Shown here: piece after piece, positions 19,778-62,768 of the stretch
Numbering within the stretch: position 1 is the first letter of the stretch
How the letters are laid out: each line of letters starts with the position of its first letter
NCBI GenBank assembly: GCA_031416315.1
Contig: JANOTL010000130.1
Span: forward strand, 23,605 to 87,604
Length of the DNA: 64,000 nucleotides
Direction of reading: 5' to 3'
Source: Pseudomonadota bacterium
Lineage (GTDB): Bacteria > Bdellovibrionota_B > Oligoflexia > Oligoflexales > CAIYRB01
The notes under the pieces: generated by a model
The model's input: only the letters and a program-made list of their open reading frames with translations
The model's database searches: none
Told to the model about the DNA's origin: nothing
Made by a program: the position numbers and the translations under genes

Positions 19778-20266
19778 ATGGGGAAGAACGCTTTCAAAGT
19801 GCAGATGGCCGCCGAGGGCGAGTGGCAGCGCCTCGCGTTCTCCGGCGCCATCAACGAAGACGCCAAAGGCACCCTCATGCCTTTCGCGGACTCGACCGGC
19901 ACGAAAGTGATCTTGGACCTGCGTGACGTGACGCTGATCAACAGCTGCGGCATCCGCGACTGGTCGATCTTCCTGCGTGCCCTGAAAATGAACCGCGAGG
20001 TCGTGTTCGACCGGTGTCCCGACGAGATCGTCCGCACGATGAACATGGTCACCAACTTTTACTATCGACTACCGGTCAAGAGCGTCTACCGCGCTTACGG
20101 CTGCGAGAACTGTGGCCACGAGCAGGCGGAGCTCTTGAAAGAAGGGGCCGACTACGCGGCGGGCGCGATCCCGAGCGGGAAACCCGTGAAATGCGCGTCG
20201 TGTGGCGAGATGGCCGAGGCGTTTGAGCCGGATGACGAGTTCTTTCAGTTTTTGCTTTCGGCTTGA
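19778..20266 (+). CDS. STAS-like domain plus zinc-ribbon protein (paralog 1)
   Basis: FSGAINED, LDLRDVTLINSCGIRDW, CENC...CASC, C-terminal FFQFL. Confidence 0.8.
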   Translation: MGKNAFKVQMAAEGEWQRLAFSGAINEDAKGTLMPFADSTGTKVILDLRDVTLINSCGIRDWSIFLRALKMNREVVFDRCPDEIVRTMNMVTNFYYRLPVKSVYRAYGCENCGHEQAELLKEGADYAAGAIPSGKPVKCASCGEMAEAFEPDDEFFQFLLSA

Positions 20267-40275: not shown

Positions 40276-41397
40276 ATGAATGACTTCAGCTCTGAGCCCG
40301 GCGCGGCCCGGGCCTTTCCTGCCGCTTTTCTGAGCGATCGTCTGCCCCGTGTGCCTGGGCTGGCGCTCCGCGGCAACGGCGTGCTCGCGCGTCGTCAACG
40401 AGGTTACGAGCTCGGCCTTCCGCGCTTCGCCGAGGCTCGCGGTCGGCTCATGCCGCTCGTGGTCGCGGTCGGCGGCGGCAAAGGCGGCGTCGGCAAGAGC
40501 TTGGTCGCCGCGAACCTCGCCGTCCGGTTTGCGCACGCCGGCCTCAAGACCTTGGCCGTCGACCTCGACGTCGGCGGCGCCAACCTGCACACGTATTTCG
40601 CGGTCGGGCAGCCGACGGCGATCTGGCCGGAGGCCGTCGTCCTCCAGACGAAGCCCCTTCGTGACGTGATCCAAGTCACGGGCGTCCCCAACGCCCGCTT
40701 CCTCGCCGGCGGGCGCGAGGAGGTCTGGGGCGGCGCCGCGGCCCTCGACTCCGTCGCCTTGACCCGCCTTTGGAACGGGTTCGCCGACCTCGCCGAATCG
40801 GGCGAGGTCGACGTCGTCATCCTGGACCTGGGCGCCGGCTCGGGCCGCCAGACGGTGGAGTTTTTCACGTCGGCGCACCTGTCGCTCCTGACGGCCCTAC
40901 CCGAGCCGACATCGATCGAGAACGCCTACGCCTTCCTGAAGGCGGTGCTCTTGACCCTGATCGATCAGGTCGGGGAGCGCACCCACTCGGAGCACTTGGT
41001 GCCCGAGATCAAAGCGCTTTTGTGCGGCTCGGGCGCGCGTGGCTACGCCGAGCGGCTCGCCGCCGCCGCCACGCTCTACCCCGGCTTCGTGGCGCAGATT
41101 CGCGCCGCTTTCGCCGGCCGCGTCACGGGGATCGTGGTCAATCAAATTCGTTGTCAGAAGGACATCGATGTGGGTAAATCCATGGAACTGATCGGAGAAC
41201 GGTACTTCGGGCTGGATTGCCGCTTTCTCGGCCACCTCAACTACGACGAGGCGGCTTGGAAGGCCCTACGCAATCGGCGGATGCTGGCCCTCGACTTTCC
41301 TCACTCGGCGCTAGCGCTGCGCTTAGCCGAGGTCGCACGCCAGGCGTTGTCTTCTTTGGGTCTCCCGGAGGTGCATGGTGCAGACAGGATCCGTTGA
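40276..41397 (+). CDS. MinD/FlhG/FleN-like P-loop ATPase
   Basis: Deviant Walker A GGGKGGVGKS, VDLDVGGANLHT, LDLGAG, PEPTSIENAY; start may be ATG 40450. Confidence 0.9.
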   Translation: MNDFSSEPGAARAFPAAFLSDRLPRVPGLALRGNGVLARRQRGYELGLPRFAEARGRLMPLVVAVGGGKGGVGKSLVAANLAVRFAHAGLKTLAVDLDVGGANLHTYFAVGQPTAIWPEAVVLQTKPLRDVIQVTGVPNARFLAGGREEVWGGAAALDSVALTRLWNGFADLAESGEVDVVILDLGAGSGRQTVEFFTSAHLSLLTALPEPTSIENAYAFLKAVLLTLIDQVGERTHSEHLVPEIKALLCGSGARGYAERLAAAATLYPGFVAQIRAAFAGRVTGIVVNQIRCQKDIDVGKSMELIGERYFGLDCRFLGHLNYDEAAWKALRNRRMLALDFPHSALALRLAEVARQALSSLGLPEVHGADRIR

Positions 41398-42067
41398 ACA
41401 GCCGAACTATTATGCGATCCTGGACGTCGAGCCGAAGGCGACGCGCGCCGAGCTGCGCGAGGCCTTCCTTCGCGTGAAGAGCGCCTTCAGCGCCGGTAGC
41501 GCCGCGCTCTATTCGCTGATCGACGAGGACGAGGCGCGCGCGCAGCTGGCGCAAGCCGAGGAAGCATTCAAGATCCTGAACGACGACGTGCGACGCCGCG
41601 ACTACGACCTGAGAATGGGCTACATCCGCTCCGGCGCCACCTCAGAGCGACTCTTCGCGGCCGAGATGCTCGGCGTCGAGAAGGCGGCCTATGACCCCCA
41701 CGTCTTGAAGACGACCCGCTCCAACCTCCCCATCACCAAGCTCCACGCCTCCAACGCCGGTGCACTGGACCTGAAGCGTCGCTACGAAGAGATGCTCCAG
41801 GCCGGCGATCCCGCCGACGGCGACCTTTACAAGCGCCTCCGCGAGGCCGCCGAGGTCGCCGAGGACGAGATGGTCGAGCGCACGAAGGTGTCGATCACCC
41901 ACGTCCGCGCGATCGAGACGAATCGCTTCGAACGGCTCCCGCAGGCAGTTTATGTGAAGGGCTTCCTGCGCGCCTATTTCCGCTATCTCGACGTGCCAGA
42001 CGCCGAGAGGCTCGCCAACGCCTTCGCCACGAGGCTCGGGGATTGGCAAGCGAACAAGAAGAGCTGA
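41375..42067 (+). CDS. J-domain-like plus RodZ-type HTH protein
   Basis: NYYAILDV...EEAFKIL...RRRDYD (J-domain without HPD); C-terminal LREA...RTKVS...IE..RFERLPQAVYVKGFLRAY. Confidence 0.85.
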   Translation: MVQTGSVEQPNYYAILDVEPKATRAELREAFLRVKSAFSAGSAALYSLIDEDEARAQLAQAEEAFKILNDDVRRRDYDLRMGYIRSGATSERLFAAEMLGVEKAAYDPHVLKTTRSNLPITKLHASNAGALDLKRRYEEMLQAGDPADGDLYKRLREAAEVAEDEMVERTKVSITHVRAIETNRFERLPQAVYVKGFLRAYFRYLDVPDAERLANAFATRLGDWQANKKS

Positions 42068-43116
42068 AGCTCACCGCGCCCGCCGAGGCGCACGGCAGCC
42101 GCATCGACAAATACCTGGCAGAGGCTCTGGCTTCGCAGGGACTGTCGCGCTCGAAGCTCCAAGCGCTGATCGAGGCCGGCTCGGTCTCGGTCAACGGCAC
42201 GGTCGTCCGCGCCAAACATCTTCTGCGCGAAGGTGACCTCATCGAGCTCAGCGCCACCACCATGAAGGCGGAGGCCGCCGGTCCCACGCTCACGCCCGTG
42301 GCGATGAGCTTGGACATTCTTTATGAGGACGAGCACCTTCTGGTGGTGAACAAGGCCGCGGGAATCTCCGTTCACCCCGGCGCGGGGACGCATGAGCCGA
42401 CCCTCGTCGAGGGCCTTCTCCACCACTGCGGTGGCCGCCTCGCGAAGCCCGTCGGCTCCGAAGAGGACGACGACGCGGACGACGACGCCAACTCCGTGCG
42501 GCCCGGAATCGTCCACCGTCTCGACAAGGACACGACTGGCGCGCTGGTCGTGGCGAAGTCGGATCGGGCGCACGCGGCGCTCTCAAAGCAGTTCCACGAC
42601 AAGACGAACGAGCGCGAGTACATGGCGCTGCTCGACGGACGGATGCCAGAGCATACGATCGTGGTCGAGAGCTACCTCTTCCGCGACCCGGAGCGCCGTA
42701 CGAAGTTCGCGGCCGTCACCATGGCCGACTACGCGATCCTCGAGAAGTCGGGAGCGCTGGGTGGCCGCCGCTATCGTTACGCGAAGACGACGTTCACGCG
42801 CGTCGCCGACTTGCACGATCGCTTGACGCTCGCGCGCGTGCATCTGCACACGGGGCGCACGCATCAGATCCGCGTCCATGCGGCCGCGCTGCGCTTGCCC
42901 GTGATCGGCGACGGCCTTTATGGTCGCGCCCTCGCCCTGCCCACGGGCTTTCCGCCGGCCCTCGCCATGCGCCTCAGGCAGGTCGGTCGGCAACTTCTGC
43001 ACGCTCGGACTCTGGGTTTCGTCCACCCGGCGACCGAAAAACCGGTTCGCTTTGAGGCGCCGTATCCCGCTGATTTTAAACAAATATTGACCGACTTGGG
43101 CATTCCCGCCACCTGA
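42043..43116 (+). CDS. rluD: 23S rRNA pseudouridine synthase (RluD family)
   Basis: S4 domain RIDKYLA; NKAAGISVHPG, RPGIVHRLDKDTTG, TGRTHQIRVH, QLLHA. Confidence 0.9.
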   Translation: MASEQEELKLTAPAEAHGSRIDKYLAEALASQGLSRSKLQALIEAGSVSVNGTVVRAKHLLREGDLIELSATTMKAEAAGPTLTPVAMSLDILYEDEHLLVVNKAAGISVHPGAGTHEPTLVEGLLHHCGGRLAKPVGSEEDDDADDDANSVRPGIVHRLDKDTTGALVVAKSDRAHAALSKQFHDKTNEREYMALLDGRMPEHTIVVESYLFRDPERRTKFAAVTMADYAILEKSGALGGRRYRYAKTTFTRVADLHDRLTLARVHLHTGRTHQIRVHAAALRLPVIGDGLYGRALALPTGFPPALAMRLRQVGRQLLHARTLGFVHPATEKPVRFEAPYPADFKQILTDLGIPAT

Positions 43117-43234
43117 AGGCCATGGGCCGTAGGGTTTTGGCGTTGAGGCCAGCTATTGTTTGCTCGCCTTCATTCGGAAAATAATGAAGGGTGAGCTTTT
43201 CATGGTGCGTCCCCGCTTCGGGAGCCGACTCTTG

Positions 43235-44257
43235 ATGCAGTCCCTCCGTCTTCTCGTTGTTCCGATCCTTCTCGCAGCCGAGATCGGGCTTGCCGCCACG
43301 GGCTCCTCGCCCGGTGCCGTCATGCCGACCAAAGGCGCGGTCGAGAACACCGCCGTGCGTTCCGACATGATGCTGCTGATGGTCGACAAGGGCTCGCTCG
43401 AAGCGAAGCTCATGACCTGGCCGGCGGACCCGACGGCGGCGAGGCTCCTCCGAAGCTTCCGCATCGCCATCGGCAAGGGCGAGGGCGACAAAGAGCGCGA
43501 AGGCGACAATCGCACGCCCGAGGGCGTGTACTTTGCGCAGTCGCACATCAACGGCTCCACGCTCCCGAACAAGTACGGCCCGCGCGCGATCCCGATCGAC
43601 TTCCCGAACCCCATCGACCAGATCTCGGGCAAGACCGGTCACGGCATCTGGCTGCACGGCGTCGAGCGCGATAGTCGCATCGAAGAGGCGAAGGTCACCG
43701 AGGGCTGCGTCGCCTTCTACAACGCCGACATCGACCGACTCTCGGCCTGGCTGCGCTCGCATCAAGGCGTCGTCGTCATCGCCGGCGACACCGGGGCCGT
43801 CAACGCTCAGCCCGACGTCGACCGCGTTCGCGAGCGCACCGTCGCTTGGATGAACGCGTGGGCCGACCGCAAGATCGACGACTACATGAGCTTCTATGCG
43901 CCCGACTTTCGCTTCGCCTCTTACGATCTGAAGAGCTACGCCGCGTACAAAGGACGCGTGTTCAATAGTTATAAAGTGATGAGTGTGACCTACGACAATC
44001 TGCGCGTCGTCACCCATCCCAAGTACGCCGTCAGCTTCTTCAACCAGGACTTCCAGGGCGATCGCCATTTCTCGTCGATCGGCCGGAAGATCTTGTACTG
44101 GGAAAAAGGCGCGGACGGCGACTGGCACATCAAGCGCGAGGTTTTCGAGAATCGTCGCTTCGAGTCGGTGACCTTCACCGAGTCCGAACTGGCGTTGCTT
44201 TCAGCGGACGTCTCGGGTAATTCTACGGAGAAAGATCAAAAAACTCCGAACCTTTAG
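43235..44257 (+). CDS. L,D-transpeptidase/carboxypeptidase with C-terminal NTF2-like domain (Csd6/Pgp2/Bd1075-like)
   Basis: GDKEREGDNRTPEGVY, GIWLHG, TEGCVA; C-terminal W..AW...Y..FY...F.QDF...GRKILYW....W.I..E; start uncertain (43184/43202/43235). Confidence 0.85.
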   Translation: MQSLRLLVVPILLAAEIGLAATGSSPGAVMPTKGAVENTAVRSDMMLLMVDKGSLEAKLMTWPADPTAARLLRSFRIAIGKGEGDKEREGDNRTPEGVYFAQSHINGSTLPNKYGPRAIPIDFPNPIDQISGKTGHGIWLHGVERDSRIEEAKVTEGCVAFYNADIDRLSAWLRSHQGVVVIAGDTGAVNAQPDVDRVRERTVAWMNAWADRKIDDYMSFYAPDFRFASYDLKSYAAYKGRVFNSYKVMSVTYDNLRVVTHPKYAVSFFNQDFQGDRHFSSIGRKILYWEKGADGDWHIKREVFENRRFESVTFTESELALLSADVSGNSTEKDQKTPNL

Positions 44258-44266
44258 GATCCCCCG

Positions 44267-45259
44267 ATGCGACATCTGCGTGCGCTTTTGGTCGTGAGCC
44301 TCTTGGCAGGCTCCCCGGCCCTCGCCGAGCCGTTGTTCAAGTACAAGGGCAAAGCTTTCGAGGCGAAGGACCTGACGGTTCCGATGCAACAGACTCTCTT
44401 CGATCTGGAGAGCGAGTCCTACATGCGCCGCGAGGCGCTCGCCGAGCAGGCGATGATCGAGATGTACCTCGACGAAGAGGCGAAGAAGGCCGGCAAGAGC
44501 CGGACCGACTACGAGGCCACCGTCTTCAAGACGACCGAGCCGACGGAGAAGGAGGTCTCGACCTGGTTCGAGGCGAACAAGGCCCGCATCCCTCCCGGAT
44601 ACAAGCTCGAGCAGATCGCGGGCGACATCAAGCAACTCCTCAAGGGCGAGCAGAAGAAGAAGGTCCACGACGAGCTCGTCGCCAAGCTGAAAGCGGACGG
44701 CACGATGGCTTTCGTCGGCACCGAGCCGGTCGCGCCGATCGTCAAGGTCGACACTTTGGGCTACCCGATGAAAGGCGCGAAGGACGCGAAGGTCCAGATC
44801 GTCGAGTTCGCCGACTACCAGTGCCCGCATTGCAAGGAAGCCGTCGCCGACCTCGACGCGATCGTAAAGAAGTACGACGGCAAGGTGAGCCTGGTGTTCA
44901 TGGACTTCCCGATCAACCAATCGGGCATCTCCACCATGGTCTCCCACGGCGCCTACTGCGCGGAGCAGCAAGGCAAGTACTGGGAGTACAACAACCTGGC
45001 GTTCGAGAAGCAGCGCACCTTGGACAAAGACTCGCCGAAGGCCCTGGCCAAAGACCTGAAGCTCGACGAGAAGAAGTTCGACGAGTGCTACGCCAGCGAG
45101 GCGCCGAAGACGCGCGTCGCCAAGGCGAAAGCCGAGGGCGAGAAAGTCGGCGTCGGCGGCACTCCCACGATCTTCGTCAACGGCCGCAAGGTCCGCGGGC
45201 ATGCCTCGCCGGAGATCGCGAAAGAGATCGAAAAAGCCCTCAAGGGCGGCCAGTCCTAG
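44267..45259 (+). CDS. DsbA-family thioredoxin-fold protein with N-terminal helical domain
   Basis: Signal peptide; EFADYQCPHC, DFP, GVGGTPTIFVNG. Confidence 0.9.
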   Translation: MRHLRALLVVSLLAGSPALAEPLFKYKGKAFEAKDLTVPMQQTLFDLESESYMRREALAEQAMIEMYLDEEAKKAGKSRTDYEATVFKTTEPTEKEVSTWFEANKARIPPGYKLEQIAGDIKQLLKGEQKKKVHDELVAKLKADGTMAFVGTEPVAPIVKVDTLGYPMKGAKDAKVQIVEFADYQCPHCKEAVADLDAIVKKYDGKVSLVFMDFPINQSGISTMVSHGAYCAEQQGKYWEYNNLAFEKQRTLDKDSPKALAKDLKLDEKKFDECYASEAPKTRVAKAKAEGEKVGVGGTPTIFVNGRKVRGHASPEIAKEIEKALKGGQS

Positions 45260-47819: not shown

Positions 47820-48021
47820 GGGGCCGTCCTGCGGATCGAGTGCGAGTGCGAGTGGGAATGAGGAAGCAAGTTCCATGCTTCCGCATCGCGCCGGTAATTA
47901 CTGGCGAATTTGTCCCCCGGGCCGGTCAAGCCTTGAGCAGCGTCGAAACGGGCGCCGGGCAATTCTTACCGCGTTAAGCCGAGGCGCCAAGCTCCGATTC
48001 CCAGAAGGAAGGAGACCCGCC

Positions 48022-50295
48022 TTGCGCCTCGCGCTCTCGCCATACCTCGCTCTTGTGCTTACCTTAGCGACCGCTGCCAATGCAGCGGCGCCGAAGGGGC
48101 CTGCGAGCCACGAGAAGCTCCGCGTCGAGATCGACCGCGAGGTGCGCTCACGCCTTTCGCCTCTCCTCACCGATTACTGCAAGGATGCGTGCACGCTGAT
48201 CGACGTCGAGGTCGACGTCGAGGACGCGCTCGGTGAATCCGACGACCTAGGCTTCGAAGGCCTGGCGGAGGACGGAGCCGCCGCGAGCGCTTATCCGAGC
48301 CACATCGCCGTCGTCATCCAAGTAGACGACCGCGTGTCGAGCCTCAATCGCGAGCGTCTGGGCTCGGTCTTGAAGAACGGACTCGGCACCATAGCCGACG
48401 GCGCCGTCGTCGACCTCGCCTGGCGGCCAGTGACCTTGCCGCAGATCGGCCAGTCGGCCGCGCTCGAGGAGCAGCTGAAGCGGCAGTTGTCGCAGCGGCT
48501 AACGCAAGCGGTCGACAAAGTGATCGACACCTTTTGCCCCGACGAGTGCGTTTTGGCGCAAATCAACGTCGACGGCAAGCTCGTGACGCCCGACGAGGCC
48601 GCGAACCTGCCCATCGAGCAACAGGTGCGCGACAAGACCGGGACCGCCATCCTGAAGCTCGATGCGGTCGACCTCGAGGTCGCCGTCGACTCGAACCTCG
48701 ACGCCGACACGAGAAACCGCATCCTTTCCGTGCTCAAGGCGCGCACACGCTTTGCCGCGCCCGTCACGGTCGAGCTCAACGTGACGGCCTTTCCCGAGCC
48801 CTACCTGAAAAAACAGGAGCGCTTGAGCCGTACCTCGAAGGATCCTTTCGGTCTGGAGCAGCTGCGCCAGACCCTGCGCATCTTCAAGGAGATGGCAGGC
48901 ACCAAGGAGATCGTCACCAATACGTCGAGCAACGCGCAAACGACCGCGTCGGAGTCCACCGCGACCGAGGCTCGGAACGGAGGCGGCGACAAGCTCTCCC
49001 CCTGGGAGTGGGCCGCCGTCGCTCTCCTTCTGCTCGCGCTCGGAACCGGCGCCATCATCTTAGTCGGCCGCTTCGCCGGCGCCTCCCGCGACGCTCGCCT
49101 CATGGTGTCGTCCGCGCGCGAAGCCGAGAGCGGCCGAAGCGGCAACGCCTTATCGCCGGCGCAGGCGGCGAATCCCGGCCGGACGGTCACCGACGAGCAG
49201 CGCCGCGAGATGACGCAGCGGCTGAAGATCGAGGAGCTTCGCGACGAGCTCGTGCGCATCTTTCTCGAGGCGCCGCGCGTCGCGAAGGAGACGTTCGCGC
49301 GCCTCCTTCAGGAAGAAGGGATCGAGGAGACCGCCCGCTACGTCCACATCTTCGGCCACCTCGTGGTCTTCGAGCTGCTCGGCGACCCGAACTTGCAAAG
49401 AGACCTTTACGAGCTGAGCGAGTACTACCACAAGTCGAACTTCCAGTTCACGACGGAAGACGAGCTGCGTCTGCTGAACACGCTGCGGACGCGCGTCACC
49501 GCCAACGAGATCCGCGTGCTGACGCGCCGGCAGATGGACCAATACGACTTCCTAGCGAAGCTCGACTCCGGCCAGATCTACAACCTGATCGCCGAGGAAA
49601 AGCCGCAGGTGCAGGGGATCGTCCTGACGCAGCTGGACCACAAGCGGCGCCGCGCCGTCTTCGACATGTACCACGGCGAGTCGAAGGTCGATCTGATGCG
49701 AGAGCTCTGCCGCGCCGACGCCATCCCCAAGGAATACCTCGCCAACGTCGCCAAGGCCTTGGCAAAAAAAGTCACCTCGCGGCCCGAGTTCGACACCGAG
49801 AACCTGCGCTCTTCCGACATCCTCCTAGACCTCCTGGAAAAGGCCGGCTTGGACGAGCAGCGCGCTCTGATGTTGAACCTCGTACGCACCAACGCCGAGG
49901 CGGCGCGCGGCATCAAGCTGAAGCTGGTCACGGTCGAGATCCTGCCTTACCTGAAGGACGGGTATCTCCTCGAGATCTTCTTGGGCCTCGAGCGCGAGGA
50001 GCTGGTCTGCTTCCTCGCCGGCACGCGCGAGCACATCCGAGCGCTGGTCCTCTCGAAGGCGCCCGACGAGCTCTCGGACTCCTGGCTCGAGGAGTTGGAG
50101 AACGTCAAGGCGCTCGACGAGCAAGCCTACCGCCTGGTCGAGCTGAAAGTGATCGGCCGGATCCGCGCGCTCGCCAACAACGGGGTGATCAACCTCCTCG
50201 ACGTGAATGATCTCGTGTTCAGCTCCGCGAACGCGGTCGACCTCGACGCGCCGGCGGCGCGCGGCGCCGGCGAATCCGCGGCGCGGGTGGCGTGA
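48022..50295 (+). CDS. Signal peptide + two periplasmic repeats + TM + FliG middle/C-terminal-like domains
   Basis: AAGGAG RBS before TTG 48022; repeats YCKDAC/FCPDEC; TM WAAVALLLLALGTGAIILVG; YDFLAKLD..EEKPQ..IVLTQL (FliG-M EHPQ-like); C-terminal IGRIRALANNGVINL (FliG-C-like). Confidence 0.8.
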   Translation: MRLALSPYLALVLTLATAANAAAPKGPASHEKLRVEIDREVRSRLSPLLTDYCKDACTLIDVEVDVEDALGESDDLGFEGLAEDGAAASAYPSHIAVVIQVDDRVSSLNRERLGSVLKNGLGTIADGAVVDLAWRPVTLPQIGQSAALEEQLKRQLSQRLTQAVDKVIDTFCPDECVLAQINVDGKLVTPDEAANLPIEQQVRDKTGTAILKLDAVDLEVAVDSNLDADTRNRILSVLKARTRFAAPVTVELNVTAFPEPYLKKQERLSRTSKDPFGLEQLRQTLRIFKEMAGTKEIVTNTSSNAQTTASESTATEARNGGGDKLSPWEWAAVALLLLALGTGAIILVGRFAGASRDARLMVSSAREAESGRSGNALSPAQAANPGRTVTDEQRREMTQRLKIEELRDELVRIFLEAPRVAKETFARLLQEEGIEETARYVHIFGHLVVFELLGDPNLQRDLYELSEYYHKSNFQFTTEDELRLLNTLRTRVTANEIRVLTRRQMDQYDFLAKLDSGQIYNLIAEEKPQVQGIVLTQLDHKRRRAVFDMYHGESKVDLMRELCRADAIPKEYLANVAKALAKKVTSRPEFDTENLRSSDILLDLLEKAGLDEQRALMLNLVRTNAEAARGIKLKLVTVEILPYLKDGYLLEIFLGLEREELVCFLAGTREHIRALVLSKAPDELSDSWLEELENVKALDEQAYRLVELKVIGRIRALANNGVINLLDVNDLVFSSANAVDLDAPAARGAGESAARVA

Positions 50296-50831
50296 GCATG
50301 GGCGCGCACGGCTTGAATCTGCGGCCCGCCGACCTCCTCCGCGAGGTGACGCTGTTCTCGCGCTTCACCGGCACGGAGATCGAGGCGCTCGGCGACCTCG
50401 GCCGCGAGGTCCACCTGAAGCCTCACGCTTACGCCGTTATCGAAGGCGAGCCGACGCGCGGCATGTTCATCCTCCTCGAGGGCGTCGTCTCCGTTTACAA
50501 AGCGGATCAGGCTTCGAGCGCGCTGGCGCGCTTGGCGACCCTGGAGGCCGGCGCGCACTTCGGCGAGCTCAGCCTCTTCGATGCCGCGCCGCGCTCGGCG
50601 ACCGTGGCGGCCGACAGCAACTGCCGCCTTTTCGAGCTTGATCACGAGGCGTTCAACAGTTTCTTGAGCCAGAGTGGTGCGGATCTGGAGCTCCGGTTCT
50701 ATCGTACCTGTGCGGAAGAGTTGGCGCTTCGCTTCCGGACCCTGAACGGGGACTATCTGACGGCCCAAAGACTCCTGTGGAAATTCGCTTTACGGCGGCC
50801 AGAGAACGAGCGGGGAGACGCGAATCGATGA
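50292..50831 (+). CDS. Stand-alone cyclic nucleotide-binding domain protein
   Basis: VIEGE....MFILLEGVVSV, GAHFGELSLFDAAPRSATV; no Crp HTH. Confidence 0.9.
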   Translation: MSMGAHGLNLRPADLLREVTLFSRFTGTEIEALGDLGREVHLKPHAYAVIEGEPTRGMFILLEGVVSVYKADQASSALARLATLEAGAHFGELSLFDAAPRSATVAADSNCRLFELDHEAFNSFLSQSGADLELRFYRTCAEELALRFRTLNGDYLTAQRLLWKFALRRPENERGDANR

Positions 50832-51298
50832 AGTACGAGCTGTTGAAAGAAGGCGGACTGGCGACGGTGAAGTTCTACGGCGGTCTCAGCGAGCGCTCGG
50901 AGGCGCCCTTAGCCGAGCTCCAGGCCGCGCTTGGGAAGCGCCCGGTGCGCCTCGATCTCTCCGCGGTCATGCGCGTGGCGCCGGCCGGCGAGGGCATCTG
51001 GCGCGCCTTCCTGCTCGAGCTCGGCAAGAAGGCGTCCTCCGTCGAGGTCGTCGCCGCCTCGGTCGACTTCATCGAGGCCGTCAATAAGAACCCCGACCTG
51101 GTGCGCGACGTGCGCCTCGTGAGCTTTCACGCTCCGGTGCGATGCCCGAGCTGCGCGCATGCCGCGGCGATCATGATCGAGACGGCGAAGGTGAGCCCGA
51201 GCTCGACCTTCGGCGCACCGCCTTGCGGCAAGTGCGGTCGGGCGATGGAGCCGGCGGTGCCGCCGGCGGCTTATTTCTCGTTTCTGTTCGGCGATTGA
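50828..51298 (+). CDS. STAS-like domain plus zinc-ribbon protein (paralog 2)
   Basis: ATG 50828 overlaps the upstream stop; FYGGLSE, LDLSAV, CPSC...CGKC, C-terminal YFSFL. Confidence 0.78.
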   Translation: MKYELLKEGGLATVKFYGGLSERSEAPLAELQAALGKRPVRLDLSAVMRVAPAGEGIWRAFLLELGKKASSVEVVAASVDFIEAVNKNPDLVRDVRLVSFHAPVRCPSCAHAAAIMIETAKVSPSSTFGAPPCGKCGRAMEPAVPPAAYFSFLFGD

Positions 51299-54944: not shown

Positions 54945-56006
54945 ATGTTCAACCGACCCATGATCGCCATCGACATCGGTTCGTCCGCCGTGAAGGTGGT
55001 CGAGCTCACCGGTGCCAAACAAAAAAAGCTGAGCGCCATCGGCCTCGAGGTGCTGCCGCCGGGCGCCGTCGTCGACGGCCAGCTGCAGAGCCCGGAAGTC
55101 GTGGAGCAGGTCCTGAGCGAGCTCTTGAAAAGGCTGAAGATCAATCCGCGAGGCCGACGGGTCGCGCTCTCCCTCGGCGGCAGCTCGGTCATCATCAAGA
55201 AGCTCAACGTGCAGGGATCGAAGGATCGCGACGTCTCCGAAGCCGCCTACTACGAGGCGGAGCAGCAGTTCCAGATCGACATGGCCGAGCTCGAGTTCGA
55301 TCACGTCAATCTCTCCGGCCGCTCGAAGAAGGACGAGACTTCGCCGGTCGTCGCCGTCGGCGCCAAGCGCGAGATGATCGAGCAGTATCTGACGCTCGTC
55401 CGCGCGCTCGGCATGCGCACGGGCTGCGTCGAGTGCGACGTGTTCTCCGCCGCCAACATGTTCGAGTACAACTACGGCACCGTCGAAGGCCTCATGGCCT
55501 TGGTGAACATCGGCGCGGCCGCGACGCAGGTCTCCCTGATCTTCCACGGCGACTACCTGTTCACGCGCGACGTCGCCATCGCGGGCGAGGAGTACACGCG
55601 GCAGATCATGCAGGCGCTCGGCGTCGCGCGCGAGAACGCCGACGGTCTCAAGGTCGCCGTGAGCCAGGCCACGGGCGGCGTGCCGCCGGAGGTGCAGAAG
55701 ATCGTCGGCACGATCAACGAGCAGCTCGCGCACGAGATTCAGGTCACCATCGACTACTTCTTCCAGAGCGGCGAGGCGCCCGCCGGCACCGGCCTAGCCG
55801 GCGTTTTCCTCACCGGCGGGGGCTCGCGCACCCTCGGGCTAGACGTCGCGCTCGCCGCGGCGCTGCAGATCCCCGTGCAGGTCGTGAACCCGTTCCAACG
55901 CGTGGAGATCAATCCGAAGCGCTTTCAGCTCGACTACATCCTGGCGCAGGGCCACCTCTACGGCGTCGCGGTCGGCTTGGCGATGCGCGCTCTGGACGAC
56001 AAATGA
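54945..56006 (+). CDS. pilM: Type IV pilus assembly protein PilM
   Basis: IAIDIGSSAVKVVEL, LVNIGA, FLTGGGS, NPF, AVGLAMR. Confidence 0.95.
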   Translation: MFNRPMIAIDIGSSAVKVVELTGAKQKKLSAIGLEVLPPGAVVDGQLQSPEVVEQVLSELLKRLKINPRGRRVALSLGGSSVIIKKLNVQGSKDRDVSEAAYYEAEQQFQIDMAELEFDHVNLSGRSKKDETSPVVAVGAKREMIEQYLTLVRALGMRTGCVECDVFSAANMFEYNYGTVEGLMALVNIGAAATQVSLIFHGDYLFTRDVAIAGEEYTRQIMQALGVARENADGLKVAVSQATGGVPPEVQKIVGTINEQLAHEIQVTIDYFFQSGEAPAGTGLAGVFLTGGGSRTLGLDVALAAALQIPVQVVNPFQRVEINPKRFQLDYILAQGHLYGVAVGLAMRALDDK

Positions 56007-56785
56007 TCAAGATCCAACTATGTCCGCGCGAGGAGCTCGAAAGCCAGTACTGGTGGGCGTTCGACGTCGGCGTCGGCATCGCCGCGCTCTTCGCCGCCTA
56101 CATCGGCGTCCAGTATTACCTCGGCACGATTCAGGAGAGAATCGACTCCGTCGACGAGAAGGCGGCGAGCCTGGTCGAGAGCACGAAACGCCTGCAGCCC
56201 GACCTCGAGCGCTTCAAGATGCTCGACAAGGACATCAAGGCGCTGAACGTGAAGCTCGACGCCTTGAAGAAGATCACCGTCTCCAAGATCTCGCGCTACA
56301 AGCCCGTCATCGTCGTCGAGCATTTCCAGAACTTGAAGCCGGAGGGCGTCTGGTTCAAGTCCTTCAAGGTCGGCGCCGCCGGCAATAAGGACGAGTTCGA
56401 GCTGCGCGGCCAGGCCTTCGACAACCTCCTCGTCGCCGAGATGATGACGGCGATGCGCGCGACCGAGACGCAGGAGAAGGACGACGGCGATCTGCGCACG
56501 CAGGTGCGCTTCGCCGAGCTGATGATCGAAGAGACGCAGATCGGTCGCGAAGGCGGCGGCGGCGGGTCTTTCCCCGAGCTCGCGACTTATCCGGAGTTTC
56601 GCATCAAGGGCAAGTTCGCCGATCACGGCGGCAAGGACGCCGTCGGCCCTTTCGGCGAAGGCGCGGAGAGCGGCGAAGGCTCGGGCAGTGGGACCTCCGG
56701 CGCCGAGCCGGGCGACCGGCCGAAGCCGAAGGATCCGGGCCCGATGGCGACGCGCGGCGCGACCAAGGACGCAGAGACTTTCTGA
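56003..56785 (+). CDS. pilN: Type IV pilus assembly protein PilN
   Basis: MIKIQL (INLL-like motif), TM, coiled coil, PEGVWF..F, LRGQA; overlaps pilM stop. Confidence 0.85.
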   Translation: MIKIQLCPREELESQYWWAFDVGVGIAALFAAYIGVQYYLGTIQERIDSVDEKAASLVESTKRLQPDLERFKMLDKDIKALNVKLDALKKITVSKISRYKPVIVVEHFQNLKPEGVWFKSFKVGAAGNKDEFELRGQAFDNLLVAEMMTAMRATETQEKDDGDLRTQVRFAELMIEETQIGREGGGGGSFPELATYPEFRIKGKFADHGGKDAVGPFGEGAESGEGSGSGTSGAEPGDRPKPKDPGPMATRGATKDAETF

Positions 56786-56797
56786 GGACGGGACCCG

Positions 56798-57670
56798 ATG
56801 GAGCTCGACGAGATCAAGGAACGATACAAGTCCGTGCCCATCCTGGGGCGGCTCCTCTGTATCGCCGCGCTCGCGGTGCTCCCCGCCCTATATACATGGT
56901 GGGACGAAGGCACCGTGCTCGAGGAGACGCTCGTCGATTCGCAGTCGAAGGAGGACGCCGCGCGCGTGACGTTCGAGAAGAACCGCAAGATGAAGGGCAA
57001 CCTCCCGGAGCTGGAAGCCAAGCTCGAGTTCACCGAGGTCCAGCTCGGCAAGGCGAGGAAGAAGCTCCCCGACAGCTACCGCATCGAGGACGTCCTGCAG
57101 AAAGCGGCCACCATCGCCAAAGAGACGGGCGTGAAGCTCAAGCTCTTCAAGCCCGGCAAGGAAGCGCGCAGCGGCGTCGAGTACAAGTACTTCGAGTTGC
57201 CGATCACCACCGAGATCAGCGGCAAGTTCAGCCAGGTCGCCTCGTTCTTCGACCGCGTCGTCCACCTCGAGGGCACGATCTTCCTGCGCAACATCGCCGT
57301 CCAGACCCGCGCTTCCGAGCTCAACGAAGATACGGGCGCCGTCCGCCGCGACAAGAACGCCGCGGCGGCGCGCGAGTTGTCGGACTACGAGAAAGCCCGC
57401 CGCGCGCGCACCGAGCTCACCGTCGACGGGCGCTTCGAGATCGTCATCTTTCGCGGCATGTCGGAGCGCGAGCAGGCGCTCGCCGAGAACGACGTCCCCG
57501 GCGGCGCCGGGGTTCCCGGCGTCCCGGGCGGCGACGTTCCCGTCCCGGCGCCGCCGGCAGGCCGACCGCCGCGACCGGAAGGGGCAGACGACGGCATCCC
57601 GAAGCCCAAAGCCGGGGACGAGAGCGCCGCCAACACCATCATCGGCGGCGCCGCCGAAAGGCGGTTTTGA
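56798..57670 (+). CDS. pilO: Type IV pilus assembly protein PilO
   Basis: TM, coiled coil, LP...IEDVL, YFELPI...GKFSQVASFFDRV. Confidence 0.88.
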   Translation: MELDEIKERYKSVPILGRLLCIAALAVLPALYTWWDEGTVLEETLVDSQSKEDAARVTFEKNRKMKGNLPELEAKLEFTEVQLGKARKKLPDSYRIEDVLQKAATIAKETGVKLKLFKPGKEARSGVEYKYFELPITTEISGKFSQVASFFDRVVHLEGTIFLRNIAVQTRASELNEDTGAVRRDKNAAAARELSDYEKARRARTELTVDGRFEIVIFRGMSEREQALAENDVPGGAGVPGVPGGDVPVPAPPAGRPPRPEGADDGIPKPKAGDESAANTIIGGAAERRF

Positions 57671-58881
57671 TGCGAAAGATTACGGTCGCGCTTTGGATCG
57701 CGCCAACGCTCTTCGTCGGCTTCGCCGCCGCGTTCGCGCAGGACGAGGAGCCGGACGGTCCCGCCGGCGATCTGCCTGAGGAGGAGAACGTCGAGACGGA
57801 GGCGTCGGACGAGGCTGACGAGACCGAGGCAGCGCCGGTCAAAGGCAGCCCGAAGGGCCAAGATAAAGGCAAAAAGACGGGCAAAGGCAAAGGCGCCGGC
57901 AAAGGCTCTGGCAAGGGCACCGGCCCGTCCAAACCCGCGGGCACCACGGCCGCCGACGACGAAGAAGACGTCGCGACCGGCTCCGGCTCCGGAGCAGACG
58001 GCTGGGAGTCATTCACCAGCATGGGCAAGAGCGCCAGCGTCGCGACCGAGATCACCAAAGGCGTACGCGTCGAGGACATCGTCGAGCCGCCGTCCGACTA
58101 TCGCTACGCCGCCTTCGGGAAACCCGATCCTTTCGTGCCGCCGCTCTTGATCGAGGCGGAGCCGCCGGGACCGAGCGCGCTCGAGATCCCGCTCGTCAGC
58201 CCGTTGCAGCGTTTTCAGCTCGAGGATCTCGCGGTGGTCGGCGTCTGGCAGCTCGCCTCGGGCGACCGCAAGGCGATGATCCTCACGCCGGGCAACCGCG
58301 GCGGCAACGCCGGCGCGGGCATCATCGTCAAGAACGGCGACCTGATCGGCAACCGCGGCGGCAAAATCCTCGCGATCGCCGACGACTTCCTGACCGTGCG
58401 CGAGTTCTACCTCGGCGCCGACGGCACGCGGCAGTTCGAGGATCGGCAGCTCTTCATGGGCAAAAGAAACGAGGAGGATCTCGCCGGCAAAATCCGCTTC
58501 ACTCCGGGCCAAAAGCAGTCGCAGATCATCATGGAGAAGGACGAGACCGTGGTCACGCCGGAGATCGGCGGCGGCGGCGAATTCGACGAGGCGCCCTTGG
58601 CCGGTGGCCGCCGCGGCAACGCCAAGAAGGCGCAAGGCGCGCCCGAGGCCGCGGCGAAGGCGATCGACCCGAACGTCGGCCAAAAGGTCCCAGGCGTCGG
58701 CGGTAACGATGCCGGCGGCGCCGGCGGCCAGCCCGCGGCCGCAAAAGCGCAGTTCGCCCCGCAAGGGGCCGCCAAGCCCCAGTTTGCGCCGGGCGGCGTC
58801 GCCGCCGAGCCCGTGAAGGCGAACCAGCCCGCGGGCGCCGCCGTTCCTGCCGGCAATGCCGGCGCCAAGCAGACGTTCTGA
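57670..58881 (+). CDS. pilP: Type IV pilus assembly protein PilP (extended, no lipobox)
   Basis: Y...GKPDPF.P, SPLQRFQLEDL.VVGV, KAMI, VKNGDLIGNRGGKI; start ATG 57670. Confidence 0.85.
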   Translation: MRKITVALWIAPTLFVGFAAAFAQDEEPDGPAGDLPEEENVETEASDEADETEAAPVKGSPKGQDKGKKTGKGKGAGKGSGKGTGPSKPAGTTAADDEEDVATGSGSGADGWESFTSMGKSASVATEITKGVRVEDIVEPPSDYRYAAFGKPDPFVPPLLIEAEPPGPSALEIPLVSPLQRFQLEDLAVVGVWQLASGDRKAMILTPGNRGGNAGAGIIVKNGDLIGNRGGKILAIADDFLTVREFYLGADGTRQFEDRQLFMGKRNEEDLAGKIRFTPGQKQSQIIMEKDETVVTPEIGGGGEFDEAPLAGGRRGNAKKAQGAPEAAAKAIDPNVGQKVPGVGGNDAGGAGGQPAAAKAQFAPQGAAKPQFAPGGVAAEPVKANQPAGAAVPAGNAGAKQTF

Positions 58882-58892
58882 CCGGAGCCCGC

Positions 58893-61800
58893 ATGTCCTT
58901 ACGCCCCAAAAAACTCTTCCGACTCCTGGTTCCGGCTCTGCTGGGGCTCGCGCTCGGCTGCGCCGACGACAAAGCGCCGACGGAGGAGGTCGAGCCGAAC
59001 GTCGAGGACACGGGCGACGGCGATCTCAGCTCGGAAGGGGAGGGGGACAAAGGCGAGCCGGCGAACGGCAACTCCCAGAACGCGGAGGGTAACAACGAAG
59101 AGACCTCTGACGACGGCTACGACGACGACTGGAACAACATGGGGTCCCAGCAGCAGAAGCAGCAGCAGCAACAACAGCAGACGAACCTCGGCAACGACCA
59201 GGAAAACGAGAACGACGAGCCGCCGATTCAGAACGTCAAGCAGGAAGAGCCGCCGCCGGAGGAGCCGGTGGTCGAGGTTATCCCGGAGGAGCCGCCGCCG
59301 GAGCCCGTGCCGGTCGAAGAGCCGCCCGCCGACCCCGAGCCTGCCCCGATCGCCGAAGAGCCCAAAGCGCCCGCGCCGCCACCCGAGGAGCCCCCGCTCG
59401 TGCCCGTCGTCTCTGGAGCGCCGCTCCTGAAACAAGATTTGCAGCCGATCCTCTCGACTTTGCACTGGGTCGGCTACGACTACGTCGAGAAAGACGGCGT
59501 GATCCGCATCGAGATCGTCACGCGCGGCTCGCCGAAGTTCAACGTGTTCCAGGAAAGGAACCGCTCCGATCAGCCCGAGCTCGTCGTGCGGTTTTTCAAC
59601 ACGAAGCTGCGCGACAAAGTGAAGCGGGACATCGACGCGAGCGAGTTCCGCTCGCCGGTCGCCTTCGTGCGCCTTCGCGAGGACCTGGAGGAGTCGAGCG
59701 TCGACGTCGTGATGACCATGCGTGACCCGGTCCAGCCGCGCATGTTCGCGAAGCACGGCAACGTCATGCTCACCTTCGCCATCCCGGACCATTACTTCGG
59801 CAACTCCGGCATCGGCGGGGCGCCGACGGCGAAGGCCGAGGTCCTTGCCAATACCAACGTCATGCCCGAGCTCGACGACCAGAGCGAGATCACCGAAGGC
59901 ATGAAGATCGCGAAGGCCTTCATCAACAATCCCGGCGCGGACACCTTCAAGGGCGCGCCGGCCAATGGCGGCGAGCCGGTCGCAACCGAGCCGCCGCCGG
60001 AGCAAACTCCCGTGAACCAAGGACTCCCCGCCGATTTCAACGCGCCGGCGAACCAGCCGCCGGCCAACAACGTCCCGGTGAATCAGCCCCCCGCGAACGG
60101 CGGTGGCAACCTCCTGCCCGCCAACGCGCCCGCCAACGAGCCGCCCGCGAACGACATGTTCGGCGCAGACGGCGGCGACGGCGGTGACGGCGAGGCCGAC
60201 GTCGACTTCGGCGACGCCGGCGGCGAAAGCCCGGTGGACGGCGAGCCGCCTCCCGGCGAGGGCAACGGCGGCGAAGGCTTCGGAGGCGGCGAGGAAGGCG
60301 AGGAAGAGGGCGGCGAGGAAGGCGAGGAAGAGGGCGAAGGCGGCCTCGACGGCGAGGAAAGCCTGGACGACTTCGACGACGGCGACGGCGAGTCTTCGCA
60401 AGAGATCGACAAGTTCGACGTGCGGCTGAAGGCCCCGGCGGCGGACGTCGTGACGCTCGGCGCCCGCGCGCTTTTGCGGCTCCCGACTGCGGCGATCCAT
60501 CGCGAGCGCCTCGGCTCGAGCCGCGCGCCGGCCTACCTCGCGGCGGCGGCGACCGTGCTGTTCACGACCTTCACCACCGCGGGCGTCGCCCAGGACGAAT
60601 TCGGCGAAGACGAGCCCGCCGAGGAGGGCGGCGGCGGCAACAACGCCGGGGGCAACGTCGGCGCCAACAACGCCGGGGGCAACAACGGCGGCGGCAACAT
60701 CGGCGCGAACAACGGCGGCGGCAACGGCGGCACGAACAACGCCGGCGGCAACGGCGGCACGAACAACGGCGGCGGCAACGGCGCCATCTCGAACAATACC
60801 TTCAGCAACAACGGCGGCGGCGAGAACCCCTTCGGCAACGGCGCCGGCAACGCGCCCGCCAACAACGCGGGCGCCGGCGCCAACGCGCCCGCCGGCAACA
60901 GCGCCTTCGGCAACGCCGCTGATCCCGGCGCCGCCGCCAACGGCGCTGCACCCGCCGCGAATGCCGCGCCCGCCGCGAACGCGGCCCCGGCCGGCAACCA
61001 GGCCGCCCCGGACGACGCCGCGGCCAACGCGGGCGACGGCGCCCAGCCGGGCGAGCCCGCCATGGCCGAAGGCAACGAGATGGCCGGCGAGGAGCAACAA
61101 GGCCAGGAATCCGGCGAGGCTCCGGCGCCGTCGGCCGGCGGCCGCCCGATCAAGCTCGACTTTCGCGGCGCGCCGCTCACCGAGGTGATCCGCGCCCTCT
61201 CCGAGGAGAGCGGCGTCAACTTCGTCTTTCCGCCGGAGATCGGCGCGAAGCCCATCTACATCAACTTCAACGGCGTCCCCTTTAATGACGCCCTCCGCGC
61301 CCTCCTGATGTCGAACGGCCTAGGCTACCTCGAAGCCGGCCCGAACATCGTCCGCATCGAAACGCTCGAGAAGCTCGCGACCGAGAGAGAGGCCCTGGAG
61401 CGCCGCCGCAAGGCCGAGCTCAAGCTGCGCCCGACCAAGGTCCTGGTCCAACGCCTCTCCTACGCCAAGGCCGACGAGGCCGCGAAGATGCTCGCCGACA
61501 TGCTCGGCGCGGTCGCCAAGGAAGACGGCCGCGTCGCCGTGCAGATCGACGCGCGCACCAACTCGGTCATCGTCAACGCTCCGGCGAGCGACCTGCCGAT
61601 GGTGAAGGCGCTCCTCGAGCGGATCGACCTAGAGACGCCGCAAGTCAAGATCGCCTCGCGCATCGTCGAGGTGATCAAGAAATTCTCCGAGGGCTTCGGC
61701 GTCAACTGGGGGATGCCGCTCAATTACGACCAGGGTCGCGGCCTGGGCTTCGGCAACCTGACCTTCCCGAACTACATGGTTTCCCGCTACTCCGTCGACC

Positions 61801-62768
61801 CCGGCGCGCCGAACCCCGCTTCCTTCCAGGGCGGCTTCCACTTCGGCTCGATCGGTAAGGCCATCGACTTGGACTTGGTCCTCAGCATGGAGGAGTCACG
61901 CGGCACGACCGAGATCCTCCAAACGACCAACGTCTTCGTCGAGGACAATACCGAAGCGGAGATCGTCGCCGGCCAGTCCGACTTCTTCCGTAACGCCAGC
62001 GCCGCGGCTCCTGGCCCCGGCGGCGGCGGCGGCGACGACCTGGACGAGGTCACCTACAACCTGTCGATGAAGGTGAAGCCGCACATCACCGCCGACGGTG
62101 CCGTGCAAATGAAGCTGCAAATCGAGAGCGACTCGCCGAGCGTCGCGACCACGGCCAACGCCGCCGCCGCGAAGAACAACCGCTCCCTAACGACGAGCCT
62201 CCTCCGCCGCAACGGCGAGACCGCCGTCATCGGCGGCATCTACAACACCAACATCGAGACCAGCGCCCGCGGCGTGCCCTTCCTGTCGTCGATCCCGATC
62301 ATCGGCGCGCTCTTTCGCTCCACCGGCAACAAGGAATCGAAGCGCGAGCTCCTCGTCATGGTCACGCCGACGATCATCAACGACGGTAAGTCGGCCGCGA
62401 GCGGCGGCGGCGGCGAGGAGGGCGGCAACGTCGCTCTCAACGAGAACAACAACGGCGGCAACAACAACGGCGGCAACAACGCCAACTTCGGTGGCCTGAA
62501 CAACGAAGGCGGCGGCAATAACGACCAGGGCGGCGACAACGAGAACTTCGGCGGCGGCAATCAGAACGCCGGCGGCAACCAAAACGCCGGGAACCAGAAC
62601 GCCGGGAACCAGAACGCCGGCGGCGACGAGAACCTCGGGGGCGACGAGGAAGGCGAGGGCAACCAGAACGCCGGCAACCAGAACGCCGGCGGCAACCAGA
62701 ATGCAGGCGAAAACCAAAACGCCGGCGGCAACCAGAACGCGGGCGACGAGGAAGGCGGAGAGGAATGA
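58893..62768 (+). CDS. pilQ: Type IV pilus secretin PilQ with long low-complexity extensions
   Basis: IKLDFRGA (N0), LSYAKA, IDARTNSVIV, QVKIASRIVE, VKPHITADG, GETAVIGGI, VPFLSSIPIIGALF, ELLVMVTP. Confidence 0.92.
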   Translation: MSLRPKKLFRLLVPALLGLALGCADDKAPTEEVEPNVEDTGDGDLSSEGEGDKGEPANGNSQNAEGNNEETSDDGYDDDWNNMGSQQQKQQQQQQQTNLGNDQENENDEPPIQNVKQEEPPPEEPVVEVIPEEPPPEPVPVEEPPADPEPAPIAEEPKAPAPPPEEPPLVPVVSGAPLLKQDLQPILSTLHWVGYDYVEKDGVIRIEIVTRGSPKFNVFQERNRSDQPELVVRFFNTKLRDKVKRDIDASEFRSPVAFVRLREDLEESSVDVVMTMRDPVQPRMFAKHGNVMLTFAIPDHYFGNSGIGGAPTAKAEVLANTNVMPELDDQSEITEGMKIAKAFINNPGADTFKGAPANGGEPVATEPPPEQTPVNQGLPADFNAPANQPPANNVPVNQPPANGGGNLLPANAPANEPPANDMFGADGGDGGDGEADVDFGDAGGESPVDGEPPPGEGNGGEGFGGGEEGEEEGGEEGEEEGEGGLDGEESLDDFDDGDGESSQEIDKFDVRLKAPAADVVTLGARALLRLPTAAIHRERLGSSRAPAYLAAAATVLFTTFTTAGVAQDEFGEDEPAEEGGGGNNAGGNVGANNAGGNNGGGNIGANNGGGNGGTNNAGGNGGTNNGGGNGAISNNTFSNNGGGENPFGNGAGNAPANNAGAGANAPAGNSAFGNAADPGAAANGAAPAANAAPAANAAPAGNQAAPDDAAANAGDGAQPGEPAMAEGNEMAGEEQQGQESGEAPAPSAGGRPIKLDFRGAPLTEVIRALSEESGVNFVFPPEIGAKPIYINFNGVPFNDALRALLMSNGLGYLEAGPNIVRIETLEKLATEREALERRRKAELKLRPTKVLVQRLSYAKADEAAKMLADMLGAVAKEDGRVAVQIDARTNSVIVNAPASDLPMVKALLERIDLETPQVKIASRIVEVIKKFSEGFGVNWGMPLNYDQGRGLGFGNLTFPNYMVSRYSVDPGAPNPASFQGGFHFGSIGKAIDLDLVLSMEESRGTTEILQTTNVFVEDNTEAEIVAGQSDFFRNASAAAPGPGGGGGDDLDEVTYNLSMKVKPHITADGAVQMKLQIESDSPSVATTANAAAAKNNRSLTTSLLRRNGETAVIGGIYNTNIETSARGVPFLSSIPIIGALFRSTGNKESKRELLVMVTPTIINDGKSAASGGGGEEGGNVALNENNNGGNNNGGNNANFGGLNNEGGGNNDQGGDNENFGGGNQNAGGNQNAGNQNAGNQNAGGDENLGGDEEGEGNQNAGNQNAGGNQNAGENQNAGGNQNAGDEEGGEE
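60625..61030 (+). repeat. Coding low-complexity Gly/Asn/Ala repeats inside pilQ
   Basis: GGNN/NNAGG and AAPAAN units. Confidence 0.85.
62430..62765 (+). repeat. Coding (G)GNQNA repeats at the pilQ C-terminus
   Basis: Multiple copies of AACCAGAACGCCGG-like units encoding NQNAG. Confidence 0.85.

Follow-up and report, generated by a model that had tools for sequence, protein, structure and literature searches.

FliG and flagellar-type MotA and MotB are regarded as specific to the flagellum. In FliG, the EHPQ motif, which is seen in the solved chains, is the site that binds FliM. A natural fusion of FliF and FliG is said in reviews to occur in Chlorobium, which could lower the novelty of the arrangement described here. 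An engineered fusion of the Vibrio FliF and FliG is described as forming rings (PDB 8z4d; PMC10941966), while the ExbBD-TonB, TolQR-TolA, AglRQS-Glt, and GldLM systems are described as non-flagellar 5:2 motors (PMC9389320). The stretch considered here, referred to as the window, is a sequence of 64,000 nucleotides from a bacterium of the class Oligoflexia (contig JANOTL010000130.1, positions 23,605 to 87,604, assembly GCA_031416315.1), in which one open reading frame joins FliF-like periplasmic domains, a membrane helix, and the domains of FliG in a single chain. This natural FliF-FliG fusion probably polymerizes into a membrane ring, which would be turned outside the flagellum by a co-inherited MotA and MotB. 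A search of the full-text literature found no description of the module formed by these genes; the tables of one MotAB survey may include these stators.

The fusion gene, a candidate rotor subunit, occupies window positions 48022..50295 on the forward strand, which also carries its parts and the two genes coupled to it, and was delimited by its translation, Pfam, an AlphaFold2 model, and a fold search. It begins with TTG, 7 nt after a Shine-Dalgarno-like AAGGAG (48009..48014), and encodes 757 residues. Residues 1-22 (48022..48087) are likely to form a Sec signal peptide, from a reading of the sequence and a helix at residues 7-16 of the model; this segment scores under the hydropathy threshold, which is exceeded by 67 of the 150 homologues that were aligned for all the counts out of 150 given below. 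Two periplasmic repeats follow. Profile, alignment, model, and fold search place repeat 1 at residues 28-141 (48103..48444), with the topology of a ring-building motif (RBM), the pair Cys53/Cys57, and a conserved GFE loop, while repeat 2 (residues 144-258; 48451..48795), which includes Cys172/Cys176, is nearest, by its fold and a chain of profiles, to RBM3 of FliF without the beta-collar. The single transmembrane helix (residues 331-349; 49012..49068) was found by hydropathy and is helical in the model. Beyond it, helices resembling the FliF tail (residues 400-432) run into a FliG-N-like domain (432-503; together 49219..49530), as indicated by the alignment with distant fusions and the fold of FliG N. 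The middle domain of FliG (residues 518-587; 49573..49782) is recognized by Pfam PF14841 at 42.5 bits (cut-off 25), and the C-terminal domain (620-725; 49879..50196), with an acidic equivalent of the torque helix at 681-694, by PF01706 at 34.8 bits (cut-off 23.3). This architecture of two repeats, one membrane helix, and FliG-M/C domains in 757 residues had been proposed in a sequence-only reading, together with the replacement of EHPQ by EKPQ and of MFxF by LVTV, and the translation and Pfam scores above the cut-offs bear it out, with EKPQ at 526-529, LVTV at 635-638, and KAPDELSDSWLEELE at 679-693.

The two repeats align with each other as genuine duplicates (hhalign 99.4%, E 3.5e-21). Cys53 and Cys57 are kept in 149/150 homologues and Cys172 and Cys176 in 150/150, and exactly one hydrophobic helix is found beyond residue 200 in 144/150. 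The AlphaFold2 model of the whole protein, based on the 150-row alignment, has a mean predicted local distance difference test score (pLDDT) of 86 and a predicted template modelling score (pTM) of 0.44, so confidence extends to the individual domains but not to how they are placed relative to each other. The periplasmic part, modelled alone (pLDDT 94, pTM 0.80), forms two alpha-beta-beta-alpha-beta domains, and its seven best Foldseek matches are all FliF (E 6.7e-7 to 1.2e-4), with TM-scores that are low because of the domain placement. Repeat 2 superposes on RBM3 at Z 11.0-11.4 with a root-mean-square deviation (rmsd) of 2.1 (8z5v_A, Z 11.4 over 98 aligned residues). Other ring-building folds are matched by the repeats at Z 9.2 (EscJ) and Z 7.9 (SpoIIIAF), and in the case of repeat 1, EscJ and PrgK tie with unrelated domains that share the fold. 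The suspected resemblance to ring-building motifs is thus upheld by the fold and by the FliF chains that head the matches. Language-model (Atlas) features assign YscJ_FliF_C to the repeats at 0.84, which is a lead only.

The top fold matches and a chain of profiles identify the RBM3, or S-ring, domain of FliF in the fusion. Seven distant single-repeat fusions share an N-domain that is matched by repeat 2 (85%, E 6e-6) and that itself matches RBM3 (94.6%, E 7e-8), with control pairs at no more than 2%. Distant single-repeat fusions closer to FliF are P0243, P0252, P0253, P0255, P0263, P0264, and P0266. The profile of the family aligns with the distant fusions over residues 208-731 (E 1.2e-40), and the profile of the distant fusions matches Vibrio FliF from 261 to 579 (E 1.4e-10), a span that runs from RBM3 through the C-terminal end, as well as the full-length FliG. 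It is only through these distant fusions that the C-terminal co-folding helices of FliF are matched: the direct comparison of residues 398-434 with the FliF tails of the phylum gave no significant match (0.08%). RBM1 and RBM2 (Pfam YscJ_FliF) have no Pfam match in the fusion and reach at most 2% in hhalign, and the beta-collar insertion of RBM3 is absent from the model, in which about 20 residues separate the first two strands. Among the sequences of solved structures, the family profile found FliG and did not find FliF.

In the cytoplasmic part, the middle domain superposes on 4fq0_D (Z 13.0, rmsd 1.7) and the C-terminal domain on 1qc7_B (Z 14.1, rmsd 1.7), while residues 432-731 of the model, including the FliG-N-like region, align with residues 5-327 of the Salmonella FliG 8umd_B at Z 14.6, where an rmsd of 17.7 reflects a different arrangement of the domains. 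FliG_N itself has no Pfam match in the fusion. The expectation that the C-terminus is that of FliG, and not only an MgtE-N/ARM fold, is confirmed by Pfam, profile, and fold matches; the generic MgtE_N/ARM fold was rejected at an E of only 0.12, against FliG matches above the Pfam cut-off. In contrast with the soluble FliG of about 330 residues, the fusion has 757 residues and a membrane helix, and it does not reach the FliG equivalog TIGR00207 (49.6 bits, cut-off 226.7), for which the canonical gene scores 334. A tree of 28 rows sets the window family apart, as a clade (100/98), from the four canonical FliGs, although the arbitrary root gives no order of events for the fusion and FliG. By the defining features of the two families, the fusion is a member of neither FliG nor FliF, yet it is built from both. 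An artefact of frame or assembly was ruled out as its source by 196 homologues at E <= 0.001, the best 120 of which share 44-70% identity and are nearly all full length. The fusion is conserved at full length throughout the Oligoflexia, with relatives labelled Oligoflexales, Oligoflexus, and Pseudobacteriovorax.

Other contigs of the source genome carry a canonical fliG, fliF, fliM, motAB-flbD, and flagellin genes, and family searches of this genome for FliF, FliM, and MotA returned no match on the contig of the window, in agreement with the earlier remark that the window contains no fliF, fliM, or mot genes. The same searches answer two checks proposed with that remark, on a canonical fliFG and on co-occurring stators: in addition to motAB-flbD, there are three extra motAB pairs, together with three membrane-tethered FliG-like genes. 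Two of the latter adjoin a motAB pair (on contigs C109 and C136), which leaves the window fusion and the pair on contig C202 (G000:C202:64926-66440), and this suggested a test of co-inheritance.

This test covered 86 genomes of the phylum with a completeness of at least 90%. The fusion is present in 55/86 and the C202-type MotA in 57/86. The same 57 genomes contain X, an outer-membrane barrel protein, and Y, a TPR protein, the latter at E < 1e-10, with two further genomes having weak C136-type matches only; in the source genome, X and Y are encoded at G000:C105:54157-56185. X has no Pfam match, and language-model features suggest an LpoB/CsgG/TolB_N-like domain and a barrel, as a lead only. 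All 55 carriers of the fusion hold motA, X, and Y, and 29 genomes hold none of the four. The fusion agrees with the module in 84/86 genomes; for FliF, an AglR-like gene, and PilM, the agreement falls to 63, 67, and 66 genomes, respectively. Flagellar genes are distributed differently from the module, and, from the distribution over the 86 genomes, the idea that the module simply follows the genes for flagella, pili, or gliding was rejected as a full account. The cultured species Oligoflexus tunisiensis carries the fusion and a matching MotA (L076).

In a sister family of the same class (f18), X-Y-motA-motB-fusion lie on one strand in 11/11 loci (11 of the 13 carriers were examined), and the same order is found in 22/22 loci with enough upstream DNA among 52 Myxococcota-type metagenome loci. 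In the source genome, the five genes of the Myxococcota-type operon find their best matches in the genes on C105 and C202 and in the window. FliF, FliM, and FlhA have no match within any of the 52 loci, and the operons of both groups contain no export gate, rod, hook, or FliM/FliN. The different stator postulated in the sequence-only reading is therefore found in a dedicated motAB, which is co-inherited with the fusion and co-operonic elsewhere. In the order to which the window belongs, the operon is broken up, and the five genes are scattered in the source genome. A single-repeat relative of the fusion is abundant in proteins labelled Polyangia. No relatives of P0255 were found in viral contigs, and none of P0261 in plasmids.

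The predicted contact between rotor and stator has also changed. In Escherichia coli, Arg90 of MotA is reported to pair with Asp288/289 of FliG and Glu98 with Arg281 (PMC12505986), and the torque helix of FliG is described as negatively charged (PMC11087270). Position 683 of the fusion corresponds to Arg281 by alignment to the Aquifex FliG; the rotors have no Arg or Lys here in 150/150 homologues and Glu or Asp in 149/150, consistent with the earlier claim of a torque helix without the usual Arg, while the position of Glu690 is acidic in 147/150. In the partner MotA of the Oligoflexia, Arg90 is kept in 24/24 sequences, and the Glu98 position is without Glu in 24/24. Rotor and stator have thus both lost their residue of one salt bridge and both kept that of the other. 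The partner MotB keeps the conserved Asp in 39/39 sequences and has the plug and the OmpA domain. The C202-type MotA groups with flagellar MotA and not with TolQ, ExbB, or AglR (100/100, 27 rows, with long branches flagged), and its nearest solved relatives are MotA and PomA. At the motif that binds FliM, EHPQ is found in 0/150 homologues, and His at that position in 0/150.

Downstream, the fusion overlaps a single-domain cyclic nucleotide monophosphate (cNMP)-binding protein (50292..50831; Pfam PF00027, E 3.5e-19), a candidate regulator, which in turn overlaps a STAS-like/Zn-ribbon protein (50828..51298), considered a local passenger from a Pfam search and the counts of loci and genomes. The GTGA and ATGA overlaps point to translational coupling of the three genes, as had been noted. 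The conservation expected of this neighbourhood holds for the cNMP gene at the level of the genome and fails for the STAS-Zn gene. The cNMP protein is found in 49/86 genomes (E <= 1e-25), all of them among the 57 carriers of the module and none among the 29 non-carriers. When seven of the eight remaining carriers were retested, five had full-length matches near 1e-24 and two had none, while the best match in three retested non-carriers was 1e-9. The cNMP protein is thus co-inherited with the module, but its gene adjoins the fusion in only 15/48 loci (seven on the same strand and eight on the opposite one; 39 loci had at least 1 kb downstream). None of the 52 Myxococcota-type loci encodes the cNMP protein, which may therefore be specific to this lineage. 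The STAS-Zn protein was rejected as a part of the module, given its presence in 1/48 loci and 2/86 genomes and 18 further paralogues in the genome (E <= 0.001). One paralogue adjoins Y on C105, and another lies at window positions 19778-20266.

Taken together, the fusion likely works in the manner of the flagellar motor core. Its single chain contains two RBM3-like periplasmic domains, a membrane helix, and the N, M, and C domains of FliG. Export by Sec and cleavage of the signal would place the repeats in the periplasm, probably locked by disulfides, where lateral stacking may give a ring like the S-ring, while a ring beneath the membrane would be closed by the domains of FliG, as in the engineered FliF-FliG fusions. 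The flagellar-type MotA and the MotB with its plug, OmpA domain, and Asp are co-inherited with this chain and co-operonic elsewhere, and a wall-anchored MotA5B2 may push the acidic helix through Arg90 of MotA. Given the altered EHPQ and the operon without fliM or fliN, there would be no CheY switch, and the motor would turn one way. In the weakest step of the scheme, given that the operon has no export gate, rod, or hook, the output would likely be relayed by the TPR protein Y to the barrel X at the outer membrane, and may serve mechanically at the cell surface, for instance in the movement or export of a surface component. In this lineage, the cNMP-binding protein may act as a brake or clutch controlled by cyclic nucleotides. 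On balance, we lean towards a flagellum-independent rotary machine, found in the Oligoflexia and the Myxococcota and composed of a one-chain rotor ring, MotAB, a TPR protein, and an outer-membrane barrel, which would exist in three versions in this genome, be controlled here by cNMP, and amount to a minimal flagellar motor core without a filament or switch.

Several observations weigh against this interpretation, in which ring assembly, the rotor-stator contact, and rotation are predictions. The fold of the repeats is common, and the C-terminal domain of CzrB (Z 10.6) ties with FliF (Z 11.0); the specificity of the RBM3 assignment comes from the sequence profiles, with the fold alone being unspecific. 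The direct comparison of the repeats with RBM3 is weak, at 5-11%, rising to 25% and 15% without the collar columns, where the scores of 24.0 and 22.2 compare with maxima of 16.9 and 18.7 in 40 shuffles each. Two genomes (G047 and G068) carry the partners with no detected fusion and only FliG-sized matches, and the related genomes in the sample are not independent, for which reason no P value is given. The motAB genes are not near the fusion in the source genome or in 48/48 loci of homologues, so the case for pairing them here comes from co-occurrence and the operons found elsewhere. Both basic positions of the torque interface are lost, which could also mean that no torque is produced. Finally, every one of the 55 carriers is flagellated, FliF being present in 54 of them and FlhA and flagellins in the other (G050), and the remaining nine FliF-negative genomes are also without the module.

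This nesting would be expected if the module were an accessory of the flagellum, such as an additional ring with its stators on the same axis, or a structure at the basal body connected with a sheath. All of its parts are homologous to flagellar proteins, and 1/11 of the f18 loci (L127) has an apparent hook-type gene, recognized by eye, 3 kb away. At 1.8-3.1 Mb, however, the nine FliF-negative genomes are small, and the nesting may result from general gene loss; moreover, 20 flagellated genomes in six groups have no part of the module. The canonical FliF, FliG, FliM, and motAB-flbD exist separately, and both the loss of EHPQ and the 52/52 Myxococcota-type loci unmatched by FliF, FliM, or FlhA argue against a flagellar role, which we consider unlikely. 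A contribution to type IV pili or to Agl-Glt gliding is a good deal less probable still. The 55 carriers all have PilM, 54 have an AglR-like gene, and pilM lies 4.7 kb downstream of the fusion here and within 13/48 loci; PilM occurs without the fusion in 20 genomes, however, and the AglR-like gene in 18, while the intact operons have no pil or agl genes beside the core, and the genes upstream of the fusion are housekeeping genes in a conserved order.

The lost torque residues suggest another possibility, in which a static, non-rotating scaffold recruits and opens MotAB, energizing X via Y in the style of TonB or Tol, or reporting the load on the envelope. In the Myxococcota-type relatives, the torque helix diverges further and Lys stands at the Arg90 position of MotA; the domain and barrel suggested for X by the language model would also fit. 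The stator, however, retains the plug and the OmpA wall anchor typical of flagellar MotB, the acidic side of the interface persists, as does Arg90 of MotA, and all three FliG domains are conserved. Such a scaffold is therefore regarded as rather doubtful, and the ring turned by MotA and MotB outside the flagellum is retained as the preferred interpretation.

The other tethered FliG-like genes of the genome have their own settings. The one at G000:C136:25384-39565 encodes 574 residues with one repeat, and belongs to a cluster of 14 genes that also holds a Y paralogue, more weakly an X paralogue, and a divergent motAB, in an order kept in six longer loci of relatives (L212-L217). The one at G000:C109:107356-116829 encodes 724 residues directly upstream of a 74-residue gene and another motAB; TPR, PEGA-like, and barrel-like genes lie in the vicinity. 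An orphan second FliG (G000:C16:265-1242) and a second FliM-like gene (G000:C31:29511-30254) lie outside the flagellar clusters, and two short tandem MotA-like frames (G000:C187:9393-10414) have no adjoining motB. In the window itself, genes for a MinD/ParA-like ATPase and DnaJ-HTH, RluD-like, L,D-transpeptidase, and DsbA-like proteins (40450-45259) are located upstream of the fusion, which they precede in 26 to 33 of the 48 loci. The product of the DsbA-like gene could act on the paired cysteines of the fusion, but the gene may also be there by plain synteny. A pilMNOPQ-like operon with a long, low-complexity secretin, named by resemblance, is found at 54960-62768.

If the preferred interpretation is true, a set of five genes that includes rotor and stator, but neither a filament nor an export gate nor a switch, would reveal a further use of the motor core, would provide a small system for tests of torque generation, and would allow one to ask whether the rotor-stator pair predates the flagellum or was taken from it.

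Of the systems described to date, the core of the flagellar motor (FliF, FliG, and MotA5B2 or PomA5B2) shares the most with the module: an RBM3-like domain, a membrane helix, the N, M, and C domains of FliG, a flagellar-type MotA with Arg90, and a MotB with a plug, the Asp, and an OmpA domain. The fusion differs in being a single chain in which a signal peptide replaces the first membrane helix. Unlike FliF, it has neither homology to RBM1 and RBM2 by profile nor the beta-collar, and its RBM3-like domain is doubled and Cys-paired; unlike FliG, it has the EHPQ, MFxF, and basic torque residues altered. The operon of the module does without fliM and fliN, the export gate, the rod, and the hook, and adds a barrel and a TPR protein. 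The engineered fusions likewise join FliF to FliG in one chain, with rings that have been seen in their case and are predicted here; they are, however, full-length laboratory constructs of flagellar proteins, whereas the window gene is natural, shortened, conserved, and provided with a stator of its own. The SctJ/SctD rings of type III secretion and SpoIIIAG/AF share the ring-building fold with the fusion, but have no FliG domain or ion-driven stator. The non-flagellar 5:2 motors resemble the module as ion-driven motors coupled to proteins of the outer membrane, but belong to other stator clades and have no FliG ring, whereas the MotA of the module groups with the flagellar MotA. To these known systems, the window adds a doubled, Cys-paired ring domain, scattered partners assigned by co-inheritance, the matched loss of a salt bridge, and a candidate cyclic-nucleotide regulator.

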